A DNA stretch of 64,000 nucleotides, from positions 33,296,001 to 33,360,000 of the forward strand of contig NC_087245.1 in assembly GCF_037042905.1 (NCBI RefSeq), read 5' to 3'. Position numbers and translations under genes: made by a program. The stretch is from Lytechinus pictus (lineage: Eukaryota). Shown here piece by piece: positions 3,512 to 48,514 of the stretch; position 1 is the stretch's first letter; every line of letters starts with the position of its first letter. Below the pieces are notes generated by a model. It searched no databases. It saw nothing but the letters and a program-made list of their open reading frames with translations, and was not told where the DNA came from.

Positions 3512-4106
3512 TTAAAGGAGAATGAAACTCTTGGAGCAAGTTAGCTTTTGTGAAAGCAGAAAAATCAAAGAATAAGATCAACAAAAGTTTGAGTAAAATA
3601 GGACTAGCAATAAAAGAGTTATGAGCATTTGAATGTAGAGATCACTAATGCTATGGAGATCCTCCCATTGGCAATGCGACCAAGATATATGATGTCACAG
3701 ATGAACAACTCTCCCCTTTTGGACACTGAAAATATACCCCAAAACATATCTTTTTGCTCATTCTAATCACATGACAAACGATTCATCAATGATATAATGT
3801 TGTGAAACCTCTGTACTTGTCCTCTCATAAAGAGAACACCTCACCTTGTGATAGAATAGATTATAAAAGTGAGAATATAAGTGAAATAAGTACTAAAGTA
3901 ATGAGGGAGTTGTACGTGTGTGACATCACAGATCTTGGTCGCATTGCCAATGGGAGGATCTACATGGCATTAGTGATCTCAATATTCAAATGCTCATAAC
4001 TTTCTTATTATTCATTCAATCTTCCTCAAACTTTCAACAATATGTTTCTTTGATTTTTCTCTTTGATATGGATTCAGTTGGTTTCAAGGGTTTCATTCTC
4101 CTTTAA
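3512..4106. mobile_element. TTAA-flanked MITE family A, copy 1
   Basis: TTAAAGGAGAATGAAAC / GTTTCATTCTCCTTTAA ends with long imperfect palindromic arms. Confidence 0.88.
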
Positions 4107-20713: not shown

Positions 20714-21115
20714 TTAAAGCTAAATGAACGTAGTTGCAGTAAAACACTGATTTCGTGAGAAAGTCTGTAAAACCAAGGTAAAGTATTGATATATCATCGT
20801 GGATCTAGATCTGGTACAATTACATAAACTGAACTTTGTGAAATCATAATATCTAGCTAAAAAACGATCGTACTGAAGATCGCCAACACAGATAGGCACA
20901 CGTGGGACAGTGTATTATTATTGCTGGAATAAAGACCCGACGAAAGTCACCGAATCCGCGCTTATTTTGCTTATTTCTCAGAAATTACACAATTTCTTCC
21001 AGAATCCTTTGGCACATATTTTTTATTCATACAAACAGACACTTTGGTGATCATTATATTAAATTCTGTAAAAGTTCATTTTGAGATCGTTCCCAAAACT
21101 GGAATTTACCTTTAA
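20714..21115. mobile_element. TTAA-flanked MITE family C, copy 1
   Basis: TTAAAGCTAAAT...ATTTACCTTTAA; collinear with 39882-40278. Confidence 0.82.
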
Positions 21116-32340: not shown

Positions 32341-32731
32341 TAAGATGTGTACCAGTAGAAAGGCTGGGAAGTTGGGGGGGGGGGCATCTTGGAGCATCTT
32401 GACCCTCACCAGATTATCATCCTCAGGTGCCAGGCAAATAAATGTCTATTTTTTCGAAGTTCTGGGACCCGTTTGACAAAACTTGTTATCGTCCAGGATA
32501 GGTAGGCCCCATAGAAAATTGACTGAACCTTGTTGTTTCATATAAACAATATTTTTCAATGGTTTCTTGTCGATTCGAGGGTGCTGATTATGAATCTGAA
32601 TGATGCCACTCATGTAAACTTCAGCATTTTCCACAAATTGGCAAAATCAAATATGGCCACCAAAATTACCAATGAAAATCATAAAATTGCGCATTGGCTA
32701 TAAATTGTGTTGCATGAGTTAAATACTCTCT

Positions 32732-33759
32732 AAACAAGTGGAATGCCTCTGGAGGTCTCACCTGCATCACGCGATTCAATATAGCAGCAGTGCTGACTTT
32801 GAAAACTACTATAACTCGCACAAGATGTTCAGTGATACTTGGTTACTCTTATGTCCACGTTTTATGAACTAGACCAATACACTTACAGAGATATGATGCT
32901 AATTCAACAAATACCACCAACGTGGCCAAAGTTCAGTGACCTTACATGACCTTTGACCTTGATCATGTGACCTGAAACTCGCACAGGATGTTCAGTGATA
33001 CTCGATTACTCTTATGTCCCAGTTTCATGAATAAGATCCATAAACTTTCAAAAAGTTATGATGGTAATTCAACAGATACCCCCATTATGACCAAAGTTCA
33101 TTGACCTTTGACCTTGGTCATGTGACCTGAAATGCGCACAGGATGTTCAGTGATACTTGATTACTCTTATGTCCAAGTTTAATGAACTAGACCAATATAC
33201 TTTCAAAGTTATAATTGTAATTCAACAAATACCCCCAATTCGGCCAAAGTTCATTGACCCTAAATGACCTTTGACCTTAATCATGTGACCTGAAACTTGC
33301 ACAGGATGTTCAGTGATACTTGATTACTATTATGTCCCAGTTTCATGAATCAGATCCATAAACTTTAAAAGTTATGATGGTAATTCAACAGACTTGATTA
33401 ACCTTATGTCCAAGTTTCATGAACTAGGTCCATATATTTTCTAAGTTATGATGACATTTCAAAAACTTAACCTTAGGTTAAGATTTTGATGTTTTTTTTA
33501 TGTTGATTCCCCCAACATGGTCTAAGTTCATTGACCCTAAATGACCTTTGACCTTGGTCATGTGACATGAAACTCATGCAGGATGTTTAGTGATACTTGA
33601 TTAACCTTATGGCCAAGTTTCATGAACTAGGTCCATATACTTTCTAAGTTATGCTGTCATTTCAAAAACTTAACCTTCGGTTAAGATTTGGTGTTGACAC
33701 TGCCGCCGTCGGAAAAGCGGCGCCTATGGTCTCACACTGCTATGCAGGTGAGACAAAAA
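32732..33759 (-). mobile_element. HINE/DINE-1/pearl-like Helentron-associated element, copy 1
   Basis: Subterminal inverted repeats GTCTCACCTGCAT (32755-67) / ATGCAGGTGAGAC (33742-54), a short IR hairpin at 33729-33754, a GCC microrepeat, internal ~150-bp tandem units containing TGACCTTTGACCTT, A/T-run ends and no TSD. Confidence 0.8.
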
Positions 33760-33832
33760 CTTAACTTTGGTTGGTTGATAAGATTTCATTGTTGATGCCG
33801 CCGCCATTGAAAAAGCGGCTATTCCTGCATGC
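33760..33832 (-). mobile_element. Short terminal fragment of the same HINE family
   Basis: Repeats AACTTAAC..TTGATGCCGCCGCC..GAAAAAGCGG, matching the end of HINE copy 1. Confidence 0.6.
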
Positions 33833-33928
33833 ATATAACAATATTAATGATAATAATGATAATAAAAATAATAATACCAGTAATATGTCTCACTACACTA
33901 CCATCTTTAGAGGCAATTTTCTAACTTT

Positions 33929-34000
33929 GTAATAATAATAATAATACATAGAATTTGTATAGCGCACTTTCCTTCCTAATTAGATGCTCGAGGCACTTAA
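33929..34000 (-). mobile_element. 3' tail of an L2-type LINE or SINE
   Basis: Minus strand reads GCGCTATACAAAT..(TAT)n, a typical L2-related tail. Confidence 0.45.
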
Positions 34001-34471
34001 TAGGAATTACAAAAGGGAGAAATCAAGTAGATGACAAGCTTGCACTAATAAACAATAGCCTTTTCATCAGATTGTAGATTTTTGTATGTTTTCTCTCTCA
34101 CAAGAAGTTTGTGAGCTCCACAATTACGCACTCTCTCTCCACTTGCTTTTACTACTCTGATCCAATTGCTTCTATATTACTGTTTGGACTCATCAAGTTG
34201 ATATAACATTTGTATCATTGATTCAAAGACATTAATGCAAATGCCTCTTGCCTTCATTTCAATGTACTCACCTAGACTATCTGTAATGCATGAAGCGCAA
34301 ATGAGAATGCATGTCTGCATGTAATTCTGTTAGGCTCCTGATGTTTTTTACAACAACATTCTACATTCCAAAGGGAAGTCAATTTAAAAGTCATTCAACA
34401 AAGGTGGTAGAAGCCATTGTCAGCATTGATCTGTTATCATCACATTCGGATACTAATAACTTCTTGAAACA

Positions 34472-37400
34472 ATGAAGATGCTTAACTTCATATATCTTTT
34501 GTTCTTGTTACCTACAAGTCAATCAAGATGCCTAAATCTCTGTGAATGTGAGCGGAAAGCTTTCACCATCAATATAGCATGCAGGGAGCGTGATCTGCAT
34601 GACATTCCACAGGACCTCCCATGCAATATTGGTTTGCTTGACTTAAGTAGAAACTTCATTACTACCCTAAAGAAAGAGTCATTCTCATGCCAAAATGAGT
34701 TGGCAGCACTTCTCCTGTCTAACAACCATCTCCGCATCATAGAGCAGAAAGTCTTTGATGATGCAGAACATCTGGTATACATAGACCTAAGCTCAAACTT
34801 TCTTGAGAGTTTACCATACCTTGGTTCTTTACCTTTCATTCAAAAAATATCTATCATCCGGAATTCTTTGACGGATTGGAATCATCAGACACTCAGCAAC
34901 ATATCAGGACCACACCTTTCATTACTTCACCTTGCATTCAACAAACTAAAGAATCTACCGGAATTTCCAGTTAAAATATCTGCTCTAGAGCTAAAGGGAA
35001 ATGCAATCACTGACCTGTCAAAAAAAATGTTTATATATCCAAAAACTGTATCATCTCTGGACATTTCCTACAACGATGTTGAGTACCTGTACAGACTGCA
35101 AACAATGGAGAACCTTAAGACACTCTCTATTGCATTCAACCAAATAAGAGAAATTACAACCACTGTATTCACTCACCTACCTTCGATTGAAACAATCAAC
35201 CTTCAAGGAAACAGCATCGTGGATGTCTCTGCCATCCATGATATTCCACATATCAAGTCTATCATATTAGACCACAATCAAATAAGATCTATAAATAGAC
35301 CAGCATTCACTAATATTCCAGATATAGAAACAATTAATTTGCAGCATAATAAAATCATTGAAATCAAAGGTGATTATTATTTCAACATACCAACTAGTCT
35401 TATCCTCTCCTACAACAACATGATTGCAATGAACATATTCCAAGGTAGATATCACTCTAACTTAAAGATTCTCAATGTTGATGATAATAATCTGCAAGTA
35501 CTTTCCCTCATTTATTTTCCTGATTTAACTTCTATATTTGCCTGTTGCAATAAAATTACAATTTTGGAATTTGGTATTTATGATTATCAACATTTAGTAT
35601 ACATCAATTTATCTTGGAACAAAATTACAAACATTACAAACTTTCAACACTTGACAAACGTACAAAGCTTGCACCTATCGCACAATTTCTTAACAAAATG
35701 GAGTGATCAAAATTTGTTAGGCTCATCTCAGCTCATTCTCCTCAGAGTTAACGACAACAGATTGTCATTGCTTTCAAATTTCACAGCCTTGCCACGACTT
35801 GAAGATCTAGATTTGTCTGGCAATGTACTTCACACTATAGAACATTCATCCTTTGAATTCCTACAAAGACTTGCCACTTTAAATCTTGCCAAAAATAAGA
35901 TTTCTCACCTTGGTTTCCTGAGGCCCATTACCTCACTCCAAACGCTGAACCTTAATTACAACAGACTTGTGGCAATCGACCCTAAAGATCTCTCAAATCT
36001 TATAAATCTAAGAACTTTACACATAGCATTTAATTTGTTAGTAGAGGTTCCTACATTTACCAAAAGCTTGAACTCCCTTCGAAACCTTGACATCAGTCAT
36101 AACCTATTACCTCATTTGAATCTTAGCCATGCCTTTAATCAAAGCATACCCATTAATATCAATGCAGCGGACAATAGAATTACCCAAGTTATTTCAACTT
36201 CAACCTTGTATCTAAATATTAATAACAATACAATTGGAGCTTCAAATTCAAGTTTACTTTCAGCAAGCAATATCTTTGCATGCAACAATAAATTGACAGA
36301 TTTCAAACATGTTAGATTTTCAAGCACTTTGAAGGGACTTTATCTAAACAAAAATCAAATAGCTACCATACCAAATTTTACATTTGTTTTTGCATCTTCA
36401 CTCCTCTTTCTAGAATTGGATGATAACCAGATAGTTGATATATCTCATTTAGCTTTCATTGGTCTTCAGTTTGTTGTCAGGATAAAGCTAGAACGAAATC
36501 GTCTGTCACACCTACATTCTGGGGTGTTTTCAAATATTCAGGAGCTACAATACCTTTATTTAAAAGGAAATCCTTTCACATTCATTTCAAGTGAACTATT
36601 TTCAGGAATACCTTGTATATTGGGTATATATTTTTCAAATATCCCAGCCTCAAACATGTCCATACAAGCATTGCAAGATATTAAAACTGTTATATTTTTG
36701 GATCTTCATGAAAATTTGGCATTTCAAGCATTGATTTTTACAAACTCAAGTATACAACAAGATGTTGCTTTGGAATTTTCAAATCTGCTTTTATTAAATC
36801 TCTCTTCAAACAATCTTGGAAATTCTTGTCCATCGTTATCAATAAACACTCTGAATGCGCTTGATTATTCTAACAACACAATTACTTCAATCCCTAGACA
36901 CTGTCTACCAAGAAAGAGTAGGCCATACAATCTCTTCTTGTCACACAATCAAATACAAAACATCTCCAAAGATTCATTTGATAAACATCAGCAATTCTGG
37001 TTGTTGGATTTAAGGTATAACAATATTGTGTTCTTTGAACTAGGTTCCTTACAACATCAGACACACTTGATATATTTATATCTTCAAGACAACCAACTCA
37101 CGAAAATTCACCTTGCTATCTCAACATTCTCTTTGAAGCCAATATTTATCTACTTACAAAATAACCATTTGTCATGTGATTGCCAACTTTTTAAAACTAT
37201 TCGAGCACTCCGACAAATACCCAAACCAACAGTTTGTCAAAAACCTTCTTTGTACATCAACTCCTCTATTGCTGAGCTGACTGGCACTGATACATGTCGC
37301 CCACAACTGTGCTCTCCACCATATCAAACTATGCTTTCGTTTGTCGGTGATCAAATGATTGAGTTACCTTGTCCTATTAAGACATCAAACAACATTTACT

Positions 37401-37762
37401 GGTCAGTCTCATTAAAAGGGCAGCAACTCTTAACCTCTTTCTTACCAGATGGAGTGGACATTCTTCCTCACAATTCTCTTATCATTACTCATGTCAGGAA
37501 AAACATGACTGGACTTTATAGCTGTTGGACTGAGAATGAAGGTGATCAAACAAAGTTTACAGTAGAATTACTTGTAGAGGATGAGATAGGAAACATGAGG
37601 AAAGAGACTCATAACCATTCAGTAATGTTAGCCAGAAAGTGGAAGGACACACTTGTATGTGGTAACAAATCTTTTGCTTCAAGTCAATGTAATATCGTCA
37701 GTAAATCATATAACTCATTGTTTGTATTTATGCTAGGTATCCATTCACTTATCACAAAGTAG
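34472..37762 (+). CDS. Intronless leucine-rich-repeat + immunoglobulin domain (LIG-type) secreted or GPI-anchored protein, 1096 aa
   Basis: 3.3-kb uninterrupted ORF. Hydrophobic signal peptide (MKMLNFIYLLFLLPTSQS), LRRNT (CLNLCEC...C), roughly 30 LxxLxLxxNxI/L repeats, LRRCT (NNHLSCDCQL...VCQKP...C), Ig domain (LPCP..IYW...SLIITHV....GLYSCW) and a short hydrophobic C-terminus (SLFVFMLGIHSLITK). No TIR or other cytoplasmic domain. Confidence 0.93.
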   Translation: MKMLNFIYLLFLLPTSQSRCLNLCECERKAFTINIACRERDLHDIPQDLPCNIGLLDLSRNFITTLKKESFSCQNELAALLLSNNHLRIIEQKVFDDAEHLVYIDLSSNFLESLPYLGSLPFIQKISIIRNSLTDWNHQTLSNISGPHLSLLHLAFNKLKNLPEFPVKISALELKGNAITDLSKKMFIYPKTVSSLDISYNDVEYLYRLQTMENLKTLSIAFNQIREITTTVFTHLPSIETINLQGNSIVDVSAIHDIPHIKSIILDHNQIRSINRPAFTNIPDIETINLQHNKIIEIKGDYYFNIPTSLILSYNNMIAMNIFQGRYHSNLKILNVDDNNLQVLSLIYFPDLTSIFACCNKITILEFGIYDYQHLVYINLSWNKITNITNFQHLTNVQSLHLSHNFLTKWSDQNLLGSSQLILLRVNDNRLSLLSNFTALPRLEDLDLSGNVLHTIEHSSFEFLQRLATLNLAKNKISHLGFLRPITSLQTLNLNYNRLVAIDPKDLSNLINLRTLHIAFNLLVEVPTFTKSLNSLRNLDISHNLLPHLNLSHAFNQSIPININAADNRITQVISTSTLYLNINNNTIGASNSSLLSASNIFACNNKLTDFKHVRFSSTLKGLYLNKNQIATIPNFTFVFASSLLFLELDDNQIVDISHLAFIGLQFVVRIKLERNRLSHLHSGVFSNIQELQYLYLKGNPFTFISSELFSGIPCILGIYFSNIPASNMSIQALQDIKTVIFLDLHENLAFQALIFTNSSIQQDVALEFSNLLLLNLSSNNLGNSCPSLSINTLNALDYSNNTITSIPRHCLPRKSRPYNLFLSHNQIQNISKDSFDKHQQFWLLDLRYNNIVFFELGSLQHQTHLIYLYLQDNQLTKIHLAISTFSLKPIFIYLQNNHLSCDCQLFKTIRALRQIPKPTVCQKPSLYINSSIAELTGTDTCRPQLCSPPYQTMLSFVGDQMIELPCPIKTSNNIYWSVSLKGQQLLTSFLPDGVDILPHNSLIITHVRKNMTGLYSCWTENEGDQTKFTVELLVEDEIGNMRKETHNHSVMLARKWKDTLVCGNKSFASSQCNIVSKSYNSLFVFMLGIHSLITK

Positions 37763-38312
37763 TAATAAGCCAAGAACACTCTAATACAAATGCAAATACA
37801 TTTTTTATATACTATGGAGAGATTTTTTAAATTTAATTTTCATGTAGGCCTACTAGATTTAGATTTTGTTCATTTTCATTAACAAAATACTGTGTAGCAA
37901 GTGTGCTGAAGTGTCAGTATGTTTACACAATTGATGCAAAATAGCATATTCTTTTGTTTTTAAAGGACAAAATGTAAACACCACTGCTGTTTCATAGATG
38001 TGTGCTATATAGAAGTATTTCGTACATGTAGACTATATTTGCATATCTTTGCTCAATTTGAAATGTTCGTACTTCATTCTTGATATTGTGAATCAGTGGA
38101 TGTGTACTTTCATACTCCCGAGTCATGTCATATACTGTATATAATTTGAGATATACATTCAATACTCATCAACTTAATAATCAATTGCAATCTTTCGTTA
38201 CGGGGCTAGAAGTTTCGTGTAAGAGAGATTGCAAAATAATCATTGCGATGTGTGTGAACCTATTGTTAACGATGTTGTAAGCTCTGTCAAGTGTTTACCA
38301 CCATACACCATT

Positions 38313-38392
38313 CATGATGGCTCAGTGGTAGAGCGCCCACCTCGTGAATGATAGGTGGTTTGATTCTTGGCCGAGTCGTACCAAAGACTTAT
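38313..38392 (+). mobile_element. Truncated tRNA-derived SINE head
   Basis: TGGCTCAGTGGTAGAGCG A-box, a degenerate B-box, then CCGAGTCGTACCAAAGACTT as in the SINE at 17933; ends at HINE copy 2. Confidence 0.65.
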
Positions 38393-39219
38393 AACAAGTG
38401 GAGCGCCTCTGGCAGTCTCGCCTGCATTACGCGATTCAATATAGCAGCAGTGCTGACTTTGCAAATGACTATGAAATAATTATTCACAAAAAATACCATT
38501 CATATAATATGTTACGACATTAATTGACCCTAAATGACATTTGACCTTGATCAAGTGACCTACTACTGGTACGAGATGAGCAACGATTACCCTAATGTCT
38601 ACATTTCATTTACTATATTCATAATTTTTTAAAAGTTATGATGGTAATTCAACAATGACCTCCAACATGGCAAAAGTTCATCAACCTTAAATTTGACCTG
38701 AAATTTGCACAGGATGTTCAGTGATAATTGATTAATCTTATTTCCAAGTTTTATTAACTAGCTTCATAAACATTAAAAGTCATGACGAAATTCAACAAAT
38801 ATCCCCAACATGCCCAAAGTGTTTTGACCCAAAATGACCTTTGACCTTGGTCATGTGACCTGAAACTTGAGCAGAATGTTAAGTAATATTTTATTACTTT
38901 TATCTGTAAATTTTATGAACTAGATCCATATATTTTTGAAGTAATGATGACATTTCAAAAAACTTATCCTTGGGTTAAGATTTCAATATTGATTCCCCCA
39001 ACATGGTCTAAATTCATTGACCCTAAATGACCTGTGACCTTGGTCATGTGACCAGAAACTCAGGCATGGTGTTCAGTAAACGTGATTACCCAAGTTTCAT
39101 GACCTAGGTCCATATACTTTTTAAGTTATGATGATTTTTATTTCAGTGTTGAATACGCCGCCGCTGTCGCCATCAGAAAAGCAGCGCCTATAGTCTCGCT
39201 CTGCTATGCAGGCAAGAAA
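38393..39219 (-). mobile_element. HINE/DINE-like element, copy 2 (same family and orientation as copy 1)
   Basis: Same AACAAGTGGA.GCCTCTGG..GTCTC.CCTGCAT start, same tandem units and same CTATGCAGG...AAAAA end as 32732-33759. Confidence 0.8.
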
Positions 39220-39881
39220 AATTTATTTCTGTCAAAATATTGATTTTCTTGATATTCAAAAATGATTTCTAGCTAAATACATCTTATATTGGTCATGGTG
39301 GTAAGAAATGCTGTACTTTGACATTCAAAATTGTTGCCATAGGCCCTAAAAGTATGATATACATTGTAACTGGGAACATATAATTTTGACAGAATTTGGC
39401 TTTGCAAGAAAATAAATATTGCATTGTGATAGAAGAGTTAAATATTGTCTAAAACCATGGTTTCTAATGAGATATATCATATATTGTGTAATTATTTAAG
39501 GTGGTAAATGCTGCATTTTTTAATTGAAAATGGTCGCCATAGGCCCTTATCATGTTATGTACAATTGAATGATGACAGATAATTATCACAAAAGGGCATA
39601 GGCAGCTAATTTGAATTTTGAAATATAGCCATTATCCCCTGAATCACATAAGAAATATGATATATTTTGTTAGAAAATAATGTTTTCAGACAATATTTAG
39701 TCAAGCAAAGCCAAAATCTGTTAAAATCATTTGTCCCCTTCACACTATATATACTACCATTAGGGCCTGTAGCAGCTATTTTTACTTTCAAAATACAGTA
39801 TTTATCACCTATCAGGCATATGAAATTATATATATTGTTAGAAACTATACTTTCAAACAATATTTTAATCATATATCACAA

Positions 39882-40278
39882 TTAAAGAGAAATTCCAGTA
39901 GTTGCAGTAAACACTGATTTCATGAGAAAGTCTGTAAACAAGGCTTAACTGATATCATTGAGGATCTAGATCTGGTACAGTTACATAAACTGAACTTCGT
40001 GAAATCTTGAAATCTACCCTGAAAAATGTTCAGACTGAAGACCCCCAACACAGATAAGCGCACGTGGGACAGTGTATAATTATTGCTTTGAATGTCGGGC
40101 CCGACGCTCTACCCGAATCCTGTGCTTATTTGCTGATTTCTCAGCAATTACACAATTTCTTCCAGAATCCTTTGGCACATACGTTTTATTTATACAAACA
40201 GACACTTTGGTGGTCATTTCATTGGATTCTGTACGAACTCATTTTGATATCGTTACCAAAACTAGCATTTACCATTAA
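39882..40278. mobile_element. TTAA-flanked MITE family C, copy 2 (nested in the Academ-like element)
   Basis: Direct match to 20714-21115 (GTAGTTGCAGTAAA.CACTGATTTC...GGATCTAGATCTGGTACA). Confidence 0.82.
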
Positions 40279-41365
40279 GTGCATTTATGGTGCTCACACC
40301 TGTGAAAATTGGTTTCCCAGTTCGCATTTTACATAATACAGTCAATGTCTATGGCAGCCATTTTGAAAGTCAAAATACAGTATTTGACACACACTTGAAA
40401 CCTGAATGATATATTTCGTTAAAATTATGATTTTAGACAGCATCCTATTTATTTATCCCAAATACATGCATTTTAGTGCTCACTCTTGTGATTTATTTGG
40501 TCCTCTTTGTAATTGTACATAATAATGTTAGGGTCTTTGGCAGCCCTTTTGAATATCAAAATACATTTTGTGAACAATTGTTTTTAGTCAGTATTCCTCT
40601 TGTTTATCTCAATTATATGTATCTTAGTGCTCACTCTTGTGAACGTTGTTGGCCCCCATTTCCATTGTACATAATACTGTATGGACCAGAGGCAGCTATT
40701 TTGAATATTGAATACAGCAATTTTCCCATACATGACATAATGATGATTTTCATACATTACTACATTCATAGATCACAATTACTTGCAGTTTAGAGATCAT
40801 TTATGTGAAATTATTTTTCCCTATTCATATATTGTACATAAAAGGGTATACAGGGGTCTATGGCGGCCATTTTGAATATCAGGAAATTAATATTTTTTTT
40901 AAAATCACTTTTCCAGAGAGATTATATTACTCCTGCCACACAATTGCATGCATTTTATAGCCAATGTGCGGGCAATTTTATGATTTTCATGGGTAATTTG
41001 CATATTTTGGCGGCCATATTGGATTTTGCCAATTTGCAGAAAATGCTCAAGGTTATTCGAGTAGCATCATTCAGATTCGTAATTAGCACCCTCGTATTGA
41101 CAAGAAACCATAAAAAAATTGTATTTCTGAAAAAACAAGGTTATACCTCTTCTATCCTGGACTTTTACAATAAAAACAAATTGCAATAACAGTTTAAAGT
41201 TATTGAAACCATTCAATTTGATTGGCTAATAGTAAATTTGTAATAAAAACAATTCATTTGTTACTAGAACAAGTGTTTTAGAAACAGGACCTAGAATTTG
41301 CTGGACTTCTCCCATTTTTGTACAAAAATAATCACAGAACATCATACCACATAGATCTAAAATAT

Positions 41366-42327: not shown

Positions 42328-43642
42328 CCAGGGGCCCGTCTTACAAAGAGTTGCGTTGGATCCCAATCGCAACTATGGAAAGCCAGCAAAGTCAACATAT
42401 GAAATGCATGTTTGTTAAAAAAACTTTCTAGATATGAATGTATATCCATAAAGTCATTGATTTCTTGACAATTTGGTGTGTTTTCCTTTGTTTACAAAGG
42501 ACATTTTGCCAATTTCCTGTAGAAAAAATCATGACACTGTTGGATTTCCATAGAATTACAATTGATTGGATAAATTAAGGAGGTACAAAAGTATTTGCAA
42601 GATGATTTTGATTCAATAAGTAAATGGCTAGACTTAAATAATATGCATTTACACCCGCAAAAAACAAAAGCCATGGTATTTGGTCAAAAGAAAAAGTTGA
42701 GGGGTGCTCATTTGTCAGTGAAATTCAGGAACATACAATTAGAAAATGTAAAAAAGATTAAATACTTAGGTGTCATGCTCGATCCGGGCTTTACTTGGTG
42801 CGAACATATTACTAATATCGTTTGTAAAATATCTCGGGCAATAGGTTGTGTAAGGCGGATTAAGCACTTACTGTCCTTTGATATTATGAAGAAGCTGTAC
42901 TTTTCTATGATTTTACCTTACATTGATTACTGTATTACATCTTGGGGAAGCAGTGCAAAAATACATTTAGATAAGATACAAAAACTTCAAAATAAATATG
43001 CCAGAATGCTTTTGAAAAAAGATTATAATACATCACAAATTTCTTTGTTGCAGTCACTGAAGTGGCAATCAGTAGATCAGCGTATAAAATATCAGTATTG
43101 TGTTCTTGTATATAAAATAATGAATGATTTAGTTCCAAATTATTTAAAACCTTTAGTATGTAAACGGCCCGTGAAATACAGGACACGGTATTCTTTACGA
43201 TGCCCCCTTCAGCTTCCCAAAGCTAGAATTGAACATAAAAGAAAATCTTTCGCATATGTCGGACCCAAATTATTTAATGCACTTCCTTCAAATTTACAAG
43301 TTTGTACCTCCTTGTTAGTTTTTAAAAAATTATGCAAAGCCTTTCATACGATTTGATAAAGAGCGAAATGATATTCCATTGATTTACAATGCTATGTATG
43401 TTTAAATTGTCACTTCCCACTCTATATTTTGGTGTTAATTGTTTCTGATGTTAGATATTTTGTATTTTGTATTTTTGATGTTGTTTGTTGTCGTTGTTCA
43501 TAGTTATCTTGACATGTATTTTAAACTGCAGGGCGCCTTTGTAAAGCAGTTTTAAGAACTGAACAGGCCTACCCTGCAGTATAAAATAAATAAAACAAAA
43601 TAAATAAATAAATAAATCGTAACTCTTTGTAAGGGGCCCTGG
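42328..43642. mobile_element. Harbinger-like MITE interrupted by the LINE
   Basis: TIRs CCAGGGGCCCGTCTTACAAAGAGTTGCG / CGTAACTCTTTGTAAGGGGCCCTGG. Confidence 0.75.
42576..43617 (+). mobile_element. 5'-truncated CR1/L2-group LINE: ORF2 C-terminus, 3'UTR and (TAAA)n tail
   Basis: ORF 42595-43356 carries post-RT motifs (LQDD..ISKW..N.MHL..KTKAM, KYLGVMLD..W..HI, LY.SMILP.IDYC...W). Terminal CAGGG...CCCTG hairpin and (TAAA)n tail; ATAAAT at both junctions. Confidence 0.9.
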
Positions 43643-47918: not shown

Positions 47919-48514
47919 TTAAAGGAGAATGAAACCCTTGAAACCAGCTGAATCAATATCAAAGAGAAAAATCAAAGAAACATATTGTTGAAAGTTTGAG
48001 GAAGATTGAATGAATAATAAGAAAGTTATGAGCATTTGAATATTGAGATCACTAGTGCCATATAGATCCTCCCATCGGCAATGCGACCAAGATCTGTGAT
48101 GTCACACACGTACAACTCCCTCATTACTTTAGTACTTATTTCACTTATATTCTCACTTTTATAGAATCTATCACAAGGTGAGGTGTTCTCTTTATGAGAT
48201 AACAAGTACAGAGGTTTCACAACACTATATCATTGATGAATCATTTGTCATATAGTATGATTAGAATGAGCAAAACGAGATGTTTTGGGGTATATTTTCA
48301 GTGTCCAAATGGGAGAGTTGTACGTGTGTGACATCACAGATCTTTGTCGCATTGCCAATGGGATGATCTCCATAGCATTAGTGATCACGACATTCAAATG
48401 CTCATAACTCTTTTATTGCTAGTCCTATTTTACTCAAACTTTTGTTGATCTTATTCTTTGATTTTTCTGCTTTCACAAAAGCTAACTTGCTCCAAGAGTT
48501 TCATTCTCCTTTAA
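47919..48514. mobile_element. TTAA-flanked MITE family A, copy 2 (inverted relative to copy 1)
   Basis: Near-identical reverse complement of 3512-4106. Confidence 0.88.

Follow-up and report, generated by a model that had tools for sequence, protein, structure and literature searches.

Two short non-autonomous Helentrons appear to have carried an intact LRR-Ig gene to new sites in the genome of a sea urchin

Results

An intact LRR-Ig gene lies between two HINEs inside an interrupted host repeat

We analysed a 64,000-nucleotide stretch of the Lytechinus (sea urchin) genome (hereafter referred to as the window; G000:C1:33296001-33360000, part of an 812-Mb assembly), in which a 6.5-kb cassette interrupts a dispersed repeat. 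The cassette consists of a Helentron-type element (HINE1), a relic of another (HINE0), an open reading frame (ORF) for a 1096-aa protein with leucine-rich repeats (LRR) and an immunoglobulin-like (Ig-like) domain, half of a short interspersed element (SINE), and a second element, HINE2. HINEs, or DINE-1 elements, are non-autonomous Helentrons, and the main text of PMC4067079 proposes end bypass or composite transposition for DINE-1-linked gene duplicates. Judging from sequence comparisons, two such short rolling-circle copies together appear to have carried this intact cell-surface protein gene to new sites at least twice. The cassette would be a composite non-autonomous Helentron bounded by HINE1 and moved by composite rolling-circle transposition (probability about 0.6); composite transposition as a class, including a variant that was bounded by HINE0, is the most likely explanation and one in which we have considerable confidence. 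The features are as follows, in window positions.

32489-32731, forward strand: left arm of the foldback-like host repeat, which has long inverted arms and internal subrepeats; interrupted by the cassette
32732-33759, reverse strand: HINE1, a young full-length non-autonomous Helentron of the DINE-1/HINE type; left cassette limit
33760-33830, reverse strand: HINE0 remnant, the inner part of an older, decayed HINE, recognised by alignment with the copy on C5
34472-37762, forward strand: LRR-Ig ORF, intact and uninterrupted, 1096 aa
38307-38392, forward strand: opening portion of a SINE-like repeat, broken off by HINE2 at the A-run
38393-39216, reverse strand: HINE2, an older HINE belonging to the L054-type subfamily; the cassette ends on the right at its far terminus
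39217-41164, forward strand: rest of the host element, lacking 0.9-1 kb near 39261 and carrying a 397-bp insertion of later date at 39882-40278

HINE1 and HINE2 belong to one repeat superfamily and have the same orientation, so that the bracketed ORF described in an earlier note on this DNA is confirmed; the HINE0 remnant had been overlooked there. The host element has long inverted arms, internal subrepeats and many dispersed copies, its left arm having at least 39 other genomic matches at 81-86% among the matches listed; 'foldback-like' is presumably the fitting label. A 397-bp young repeat, about 96% identical to many copies, occupies 39882-40278 in the host element and recurs at 20714-21115.

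As an assessment of the insertion site, we compared the sequences on the two sides of the cassette with intact host-repeat copies. Positions 32526-32731 and 39218-39261 form one continuous alignment to the reverse complement of the host right arm; the longer alignment that had been proposed breaks past 39261 because a separate host deletion of 0.9-1 kb begins 44 nt to the right of the cassette. In all four intact copies, these 44 nt gave their best score (26) two bases past the left breakpoint, and 30 shuffles of them, scored against one intact copy, reached a maximum of 12 anywhere in it. No target duplication is visible at this site. The right breakpoint is ambiguous (39215 to 39217) because of GA/A-run microhomology, with 0-2 host bases unaccounted for: assigning base 39216 to the host gives a gapless empty site, and assigning it to HINE2 leaves up to two host bases missing. 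HINE2 is itself short of at least two terminal bases that its nearest subfamily copy, L054, has. Within this slack of 0-2 nt, the earlier claim of insertion at a single point, with neither duplication nor deletion of the target, holds in 4/4 copies.

A second cassette has a clean empty site in an unrelated repeat

With 40 of 1025 genome-wide candidates scored, the cargo has four close relatives. The copy on C5 is 94.8% identical to the window in the coding region, the two cassettes being 92-95% identical in the cargo, and it is limited on one side by HINE0, short and decayed (from 41257137), and on the other by an L055/56-type HINE ending at 41262849. The flanks of the C5 cassette are contiguous in 7 of the 8 paralogous repeat copies compared (out of 42 matches), which constitutes a clean empty site; there is no target duplication, and the target repeat is unrelated to the host repeat of the window. 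Taken together, the two unlinked insertions have HINE termini at all four limits, and each lies within a different pre-existing repeat. Insertion into a T-run without target duplication is seen at the C5 cassette and in the flanks of HINE family copies, and at the window site to within 0-2 nt. A HINE1-like copy at 41255117-41256069 inserted separately, 1 kb beyond the true C5 limit, and we rejected the idea that C5 shares HINE1 with the window.

The two cassettes differ at their edges. The outer part of HINE0 (about 115-120 nt), missing from the window, is present at C5 as the left limit; in the window, HINE0 is joined to HINE1 at an A-run inside HINE0 and the outer part is gone. The SINE ends where it meets the HINE in either cassette, its tail missing from the far side. 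The C15 paralogue has the downstream SINE complete except for about 10 nt and free of any HINE there, the state without HINE2; another complete SINE lies at window 17929, and the C17 copy has neither SINE nor HINE. Counts of shared-site patterns, on which the grouping rests, place the window and C5 as sisters (17 patterns, versus 7 and 8) relative to C15 and C17. The bounding HINEs are not the same in the two copies: those at the SINE site are 83% identical and bear different subfamily marks. At both loci the outer ends carry subterminal repeats of different HINE subfamilies, and no element of the window is visibly chimeric.

The SINE/HINE junction pattern has two further genomic matches, neither of them a cassette. 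The match on C10 (G000:C10:13417314, L064) is an unrelated SINE copy hit by another HINE subfamily at the same base, indicating a recurrent target; the other is not a SINE. Exact head-to-tail HINE junctions occur 15 times in the genome. At C1:4410219-4412460 (L022, L023), a 428-nt piece of the LRR gene lies between two HINE parts in cassette order, with microhomology-type joints, and is possibly a deleted third cassette copy. A 357-bp insertion (L016 7687-8042) in the C5 cargo contains inverted repeats and appears to be flanked by an 8-bp target duplication.

The flanking HINEs share both termini with an autonomous Helentron

HINE1 matches 7 copies of its young family at 94-97% throughout and differs from their consensus by 2.6%. 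HINE2 is 87% identical to L054 and 83% to HINE1, its best genomic BLAST matches are at about 80%, and it has its own matched subterminal repeats of the L054 type. The flanking elements end in A-runs and have an internal array of 163 bp as well as a GCC microsatellite. A 13-bp pair of subterminal inverted repeats is found in HINE1 and in HINE2, one member adjoining the A-run and the other about 20 nt from the far end, which is closer than the 38-60 bp set-in that the main text of PMC4067079 gives for mite HINEs. The hairpin near the structural 3' end is weak (-3.7 and -5.1 kcal/mol); the strong one (-18) lies at the opposite end of the HINE, as in the DINE-1 inverted repeat, and this is also the ORF-downstream end of the autonomous element described below. 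A 34-nt pattern of the HINE terminus has 2,950 exact matches in the genome and its reversed control none.

The Helitron Rep domain has 35 Pfam matches in the genome, mostly in frames of 2,000-3,500 codons. One of the three Rep-helicase families sampled ends in the HINE terminus (G000:C1:1328307-1345866, 17.6 kb); the other two have no HINE terminus in the 4.2 kb examined. The 17.6-kb element has an open frame of 2586 aa with Rep (PF14214), PIF1 helicase (PF05970), DUF6570 and an endonuclease (PF14529). Both HINE termini match it, the left (upstream) end from one copy and the right from two. A second copy matches its downstream end at 99.7%, the similarity stopping at the terminus; copies are 99.4-99.7% alike at the end compared, and the element has likely been active recently. 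By the definitions in the texts of PMC4067079 and PMC11417382, the flanking repeats classify as HINEs with an autonomous Helentron partner. These results, together with the second insertion and its empty site, support the proposal in the earlier note of composite transposition between two HINEs. They do not establish its direction (a start at HINE2 and a stop at HINE1): relative to the structural 5'-3' convention the ORF of the autonomous element is inverted, an orientation described for some Helentrons in the texts of PMC4067079 and PMC5148889, and the strong hairpin lies at the ORF-downstream end, so that the direction of copying is not readable from these features.

At least two further Rep-helicase families occur on C10, C11, C12, C14 and C16, with many equal-scoring copies, several of them clustered, and frames of 3,200-3,500 codons; their termini were not found in the stretches examined. 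At G000:C2:42004598-42035964, Rep fragments recur every ~5 kb upstream of a full copy, in what looks like a rolling-circle tandem array.

Composite transposition probably accounts for the limits of both cassettes

We favour composite rolling-circle transposition because the four limits are exact HINE termini, there are no duplications, and sequence was left behind at former limits. From the two insertions, their limits and empty sites and the autonomous partner documented above, we infer the role of the enzyme and the order and direction of events as follows. The Rep-helicase-endonuclease would be supplied in trans by the 17.6-kb autonomous family. Copying would begin at the outer terminus of one HINE, bypass the inner termini and the gene, and end where the other HINE has its outer terminus; the strand would be joined into an A/T run without duplication. 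At the outset, the SINE and HINE0 would have come to flank the ancestral gene, and a HINE would have entered the A-run of the SINE; one composite, from HINE0 to the L055/56-type HINE, would then have landed at C5. In the other lineage, the young HINE1 would have entered the A-run inside HINE0, and transfer of a HINE1-to-HINE2 composite into the foldback element would have left behind both the SINE tail and the outer HINE0 part.

Several observations weigh against this account. Among the candidates scored, we found neither a donor locus with both HINEs in their original surroundings, which the earlier note had hoped to trace, nor a copy with HINE1 nested in a whole HINE0. The right junction is not textbook-clean, terminal bases having been lost at microhomology. 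HINE2 is old (13% from the nearest copy compared), making its role as an active end an assumption, and the finds amount to no more than two whole cassettes plus a possible deleted derivative. In addition, the HINE at the SINE site differs between the cassettes (83%, versus 92-95% in the cargo), and therefore an extra event is needed. A second HINE could have entered at the end of the first, as the 15 head-to-tail junctions illustrate; independent hits could have fallen on a favoured base, as in the unrelated SINE on C10; or gene conversion could be responsible.

The strongest alternative retains composite transposition and changes only the left limit. The cassette would have been bounded by HINE0 on arrival, as at C5; HINE1 would have inserted later in place, and a deletion between two similar starts (about 75 nt, 87% alike and about 115 nt apart) would have removed the outer part of HINE0. 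This sequence of events requires no unseen intermediate. It also agrees with the age of HINE1, which at 2.6% from its consensus is younger than the split between window and C5 (~3-4% per lineage), and with a read contig in run X9 (organism B, probably another species), in which the HINE0/cargo junction is present with no continuation into HINE1. However, the start of HINE1 is of the HINE1 type, not the HINE0 type, at every diagnostic position from about base 21, and the crossover would therefore fall within the first 20 bases. We consider this variant unlikely, if a serious contender; in-place insertion of HINE1 with a short deletion also fits the data, and it is not established that the move itself was limited by HINE1, as had been supposed.

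Less probable still is homology-driven repair, in which a HINE already resident at the target recombined with a gene-bearing circle or template, or copying from one HINE to another mended a break; non-allelic homologous recombination is argued for DNAREP1 in the text of PMC2211543. In its favour, HINEs are abundant, with 2,950 exact terminal matches, exchange or renewed hits of such elements are evident from the different HINEs at the SINE site, and microhomology is present both at the right junction and at the joints of the C1:4.41 Mb derivative. However, such repair predicts matching outer ends and chimeric elements, whereas the outer repeats differ at both loci and no chimera is visible in the window; it would also have to yield exact termini at four limits. 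Since each flanking element is of one subfamily internally and the outer ends differ, recombination with a resident HINE is disfavoured, and with it the circle integration by HINE-HINE recombination that had been offered as an alternative.

Misassembly, or repeats brought together by chance around a gene already in place, is very improbable. In its favour, the region is repeat-dense, and the read comparison covered 33690-39330, a stretch that starts to the right of the left junction and in which no listed read piece bridged the right one. Against it, the host repeat resumes beyond the 6.5 kb in register to within 2 nt, a second cassette 92-95% identical follows the same logic, and a contig in run X1 is ~99% identical over 36346-38418; this contig reaches about 25 nt into HINE2, below the 31-nt threshold of the tool.

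The cargo belongs to a subfamily with signs of constraint and possibly divergent fates

The 1096-aa protein comprises about 29 LRR motifs (Pfam LRR_8, E 3.7e-64), an LRRCT, one Ig-like domain and a short hydrophobic tail, with a signal-peptide-like start. The Ig-like domain gave weak but consistent matches to DCC (E 5e-4), LRRC4 and AMIGO1, and Atlas leads for the LRRCT-Ig region stood at 0.81-0.86, all under 0.9. A single-sequence AlphaFold prediction of the C-terminal 230 aa had a pLDDT of 35 and was not used. The start and the tail read as a putative signal peptide and a GPI-like signal, the short hydrophobic tail suggesting a glycosylphosphatidylinositol (GPI) anchor. No 19-residue hydropathy window near the C-terminus exceeds 1.5, a value expected of a transmembrane segment, and the ORF protein contains no TIR or other Pfam domain beside the LRR. 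The term 'receptor' used in the earlier note is therefore not established, no clear transmembrane or cytoplasmic domain having been found. LRRC4/NGL, AMIGO and the Lytechinus 'chaoptin-like/artichoke-like' predictions share the arrangement of LRR array, LRRCT and Ig-like domain; the protein of the window differs in its much longer LRR array and in having no clear transmembrane segment or cytoplasmic tail.

Close relatives of the protein were found only in Lytechinus and in one further record (P0002), the closest being L. variegatus proteins. A paralogue of the gene (L007) encodes a protein 100% identical to P0004, which its source assigns to Lytechinus pictus, and the genome is accordingly most likely that of L. 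pictus. Frameshifting indels interrupt the C5, C15 and C17 copies alike in this assembly, and the window copy is therefore the one subfamily member found with its frame open. The ratio of non-synonymous to synonymous rates (dN/dS) is ~0.42 for the window lineage (23 synonymous and 35 non-synonymous changes, p 0.002) and 0.52 for the C5 lineage (p 0.01); as the C5 lineage is also constrained, part of the constraint may predate the moves. The L. variegatus protein P0001, which is whole, shares 15/46 C5-derived and 2/34 window-derived residues, and P0003 shares 7/17 window-derived and 2/19 C5-derived residues. This sharing indicates that the window and C5 lineages predate the split of the species. 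Around the position of residue 676 in the window protein, P0003 departs from the family sequence and is apparently truncated; its tail resembles a retroelement fragment. Thus, the two lineages may have met opposite fates in the two species.

Distant paralogues are 50-55% identical, several of them in tandem clusters, and none of 13 such loci has a HINE within 1.5 kb. The HINE route therefore explains one subfamily only: as a means of gene dispersal, which the earlier note had envisaged for such LRR genes, it stands for the two insertions here and not for the family at large. Tandem clusters of uninterrupted LRR-Ig paralogues lie at C18:8.86-9.06 Mb and C1:23.80-23.83 Mb; they are apparently expanded in Lytechinus and bear automatic annotation names only.

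Tentatively, these observations could be combined into a self-renewing shuttle, a reading that we regard as doubtful. Fresh HINEs would repeatedly enter A-runs at the cassette edges and renew its working ends, the gene would move again, and reciprocal gene loss would follow. The only intact subfamily member in this assembly would then be a transposed copy, with the window type intact here and apparently truncated in L. variegatus, and the C5 type broken here and intact there.

Two further features of the window are recorded for completeness. A 237-aa frame at 42643-43356, with no Pfam match, resembles the terminal part of a LINE reverse transcriptase. A repeat of 600 bp that has inverted arms is present in two 95-98% identical copies (3512-4106 and 47919-48514), in opposite orientation and 44 kb apart.

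Discussion

The locus offers unusually direct support for a gene-moving route suspected for these elements. Duplicates flanked by DINE-1/HINE have been reported since 2008 (PMC2211543), and the main texts of PMC4067079 and PMC3359341 leave open the choice between transposition and ectopic recombination. Here, tests that can separate the two are provided by the empty sites, by termini acting as limits, by outer ends that do not match each other and by a young autonomous Helentron that shares the HINE ends. A pair of short non-coding elements would thus be able to move a whole 3.3-kb coding sequence that stays open. The host is a tractable laboratory animal, and the subfamily test of outer ends can be applied genome-wide. 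If the shuttle reading were true, Helentron movement would be a source of reciprocal gene loss between sister species.

The Lytechinus elements share with HINE/DINE-1, as characterised in the main text of PMC4067079, inverted repeats in subterminal position, tandem repeats inside the element, a microsatellite, the T-run target without duplication, and an autonomous partner with an endonuclease; the terminal palindromes of HINE/DINE-1 may have a counterpart in the hairpins described above. In that set the composite route is a suggestion, with few captured gene fragments, whereas the present cassette has a whole open ORF at two sites with empty-site support. New genes of Drosophila flanked by DINE-1/DNAREP1 (PMC2211543, PMC3359341) are likewise dispersed duplicates with elements at or near the breakpoints, but the mechanism is left open or ascribed to non-allelic recombination, and the text examined contains no empty-site or subfamily test. 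Intact genes have multiplied alongside rolling-circle elements in the cases of fish texim (PMC4021074) and fungal ToxB-HLE (10.1101/2025.11.13.688278), and near-full-length Helitron captures in maize are cited in PMC4224331; as these texts describe them, they involve single elements or tandem arrays, whereas in Lytechinus a pair of separate short non-autonomous elements is involved.

The closest parallel is HelibatN539, a composite bat Helitron in which, according to the main text of PMC4224331, the 5' end of one copy together with another copy's 3' end captured the DNA between them. That element has canonical Helitron ends, carries a KCNQ5 region and has a known parental site; the Lytechinus cassette has Helentron-type ends and a complete coding sequence, no donor was found for it, and its bounding elements differ between copies. 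In the literature consulted, mainly open-access main texts, we found no HINE pair with an intact gene and empty sites, and the supplements of PMC4067079 and PMC4224331 may list more composites. Composite capture itself is thus known for bat Helitrons and proposed for HINEs; what appears to be new, on the sequence evidence presented here, is a pair of HINEs enclosing an intact gene, with empty sites at the places where it landed.

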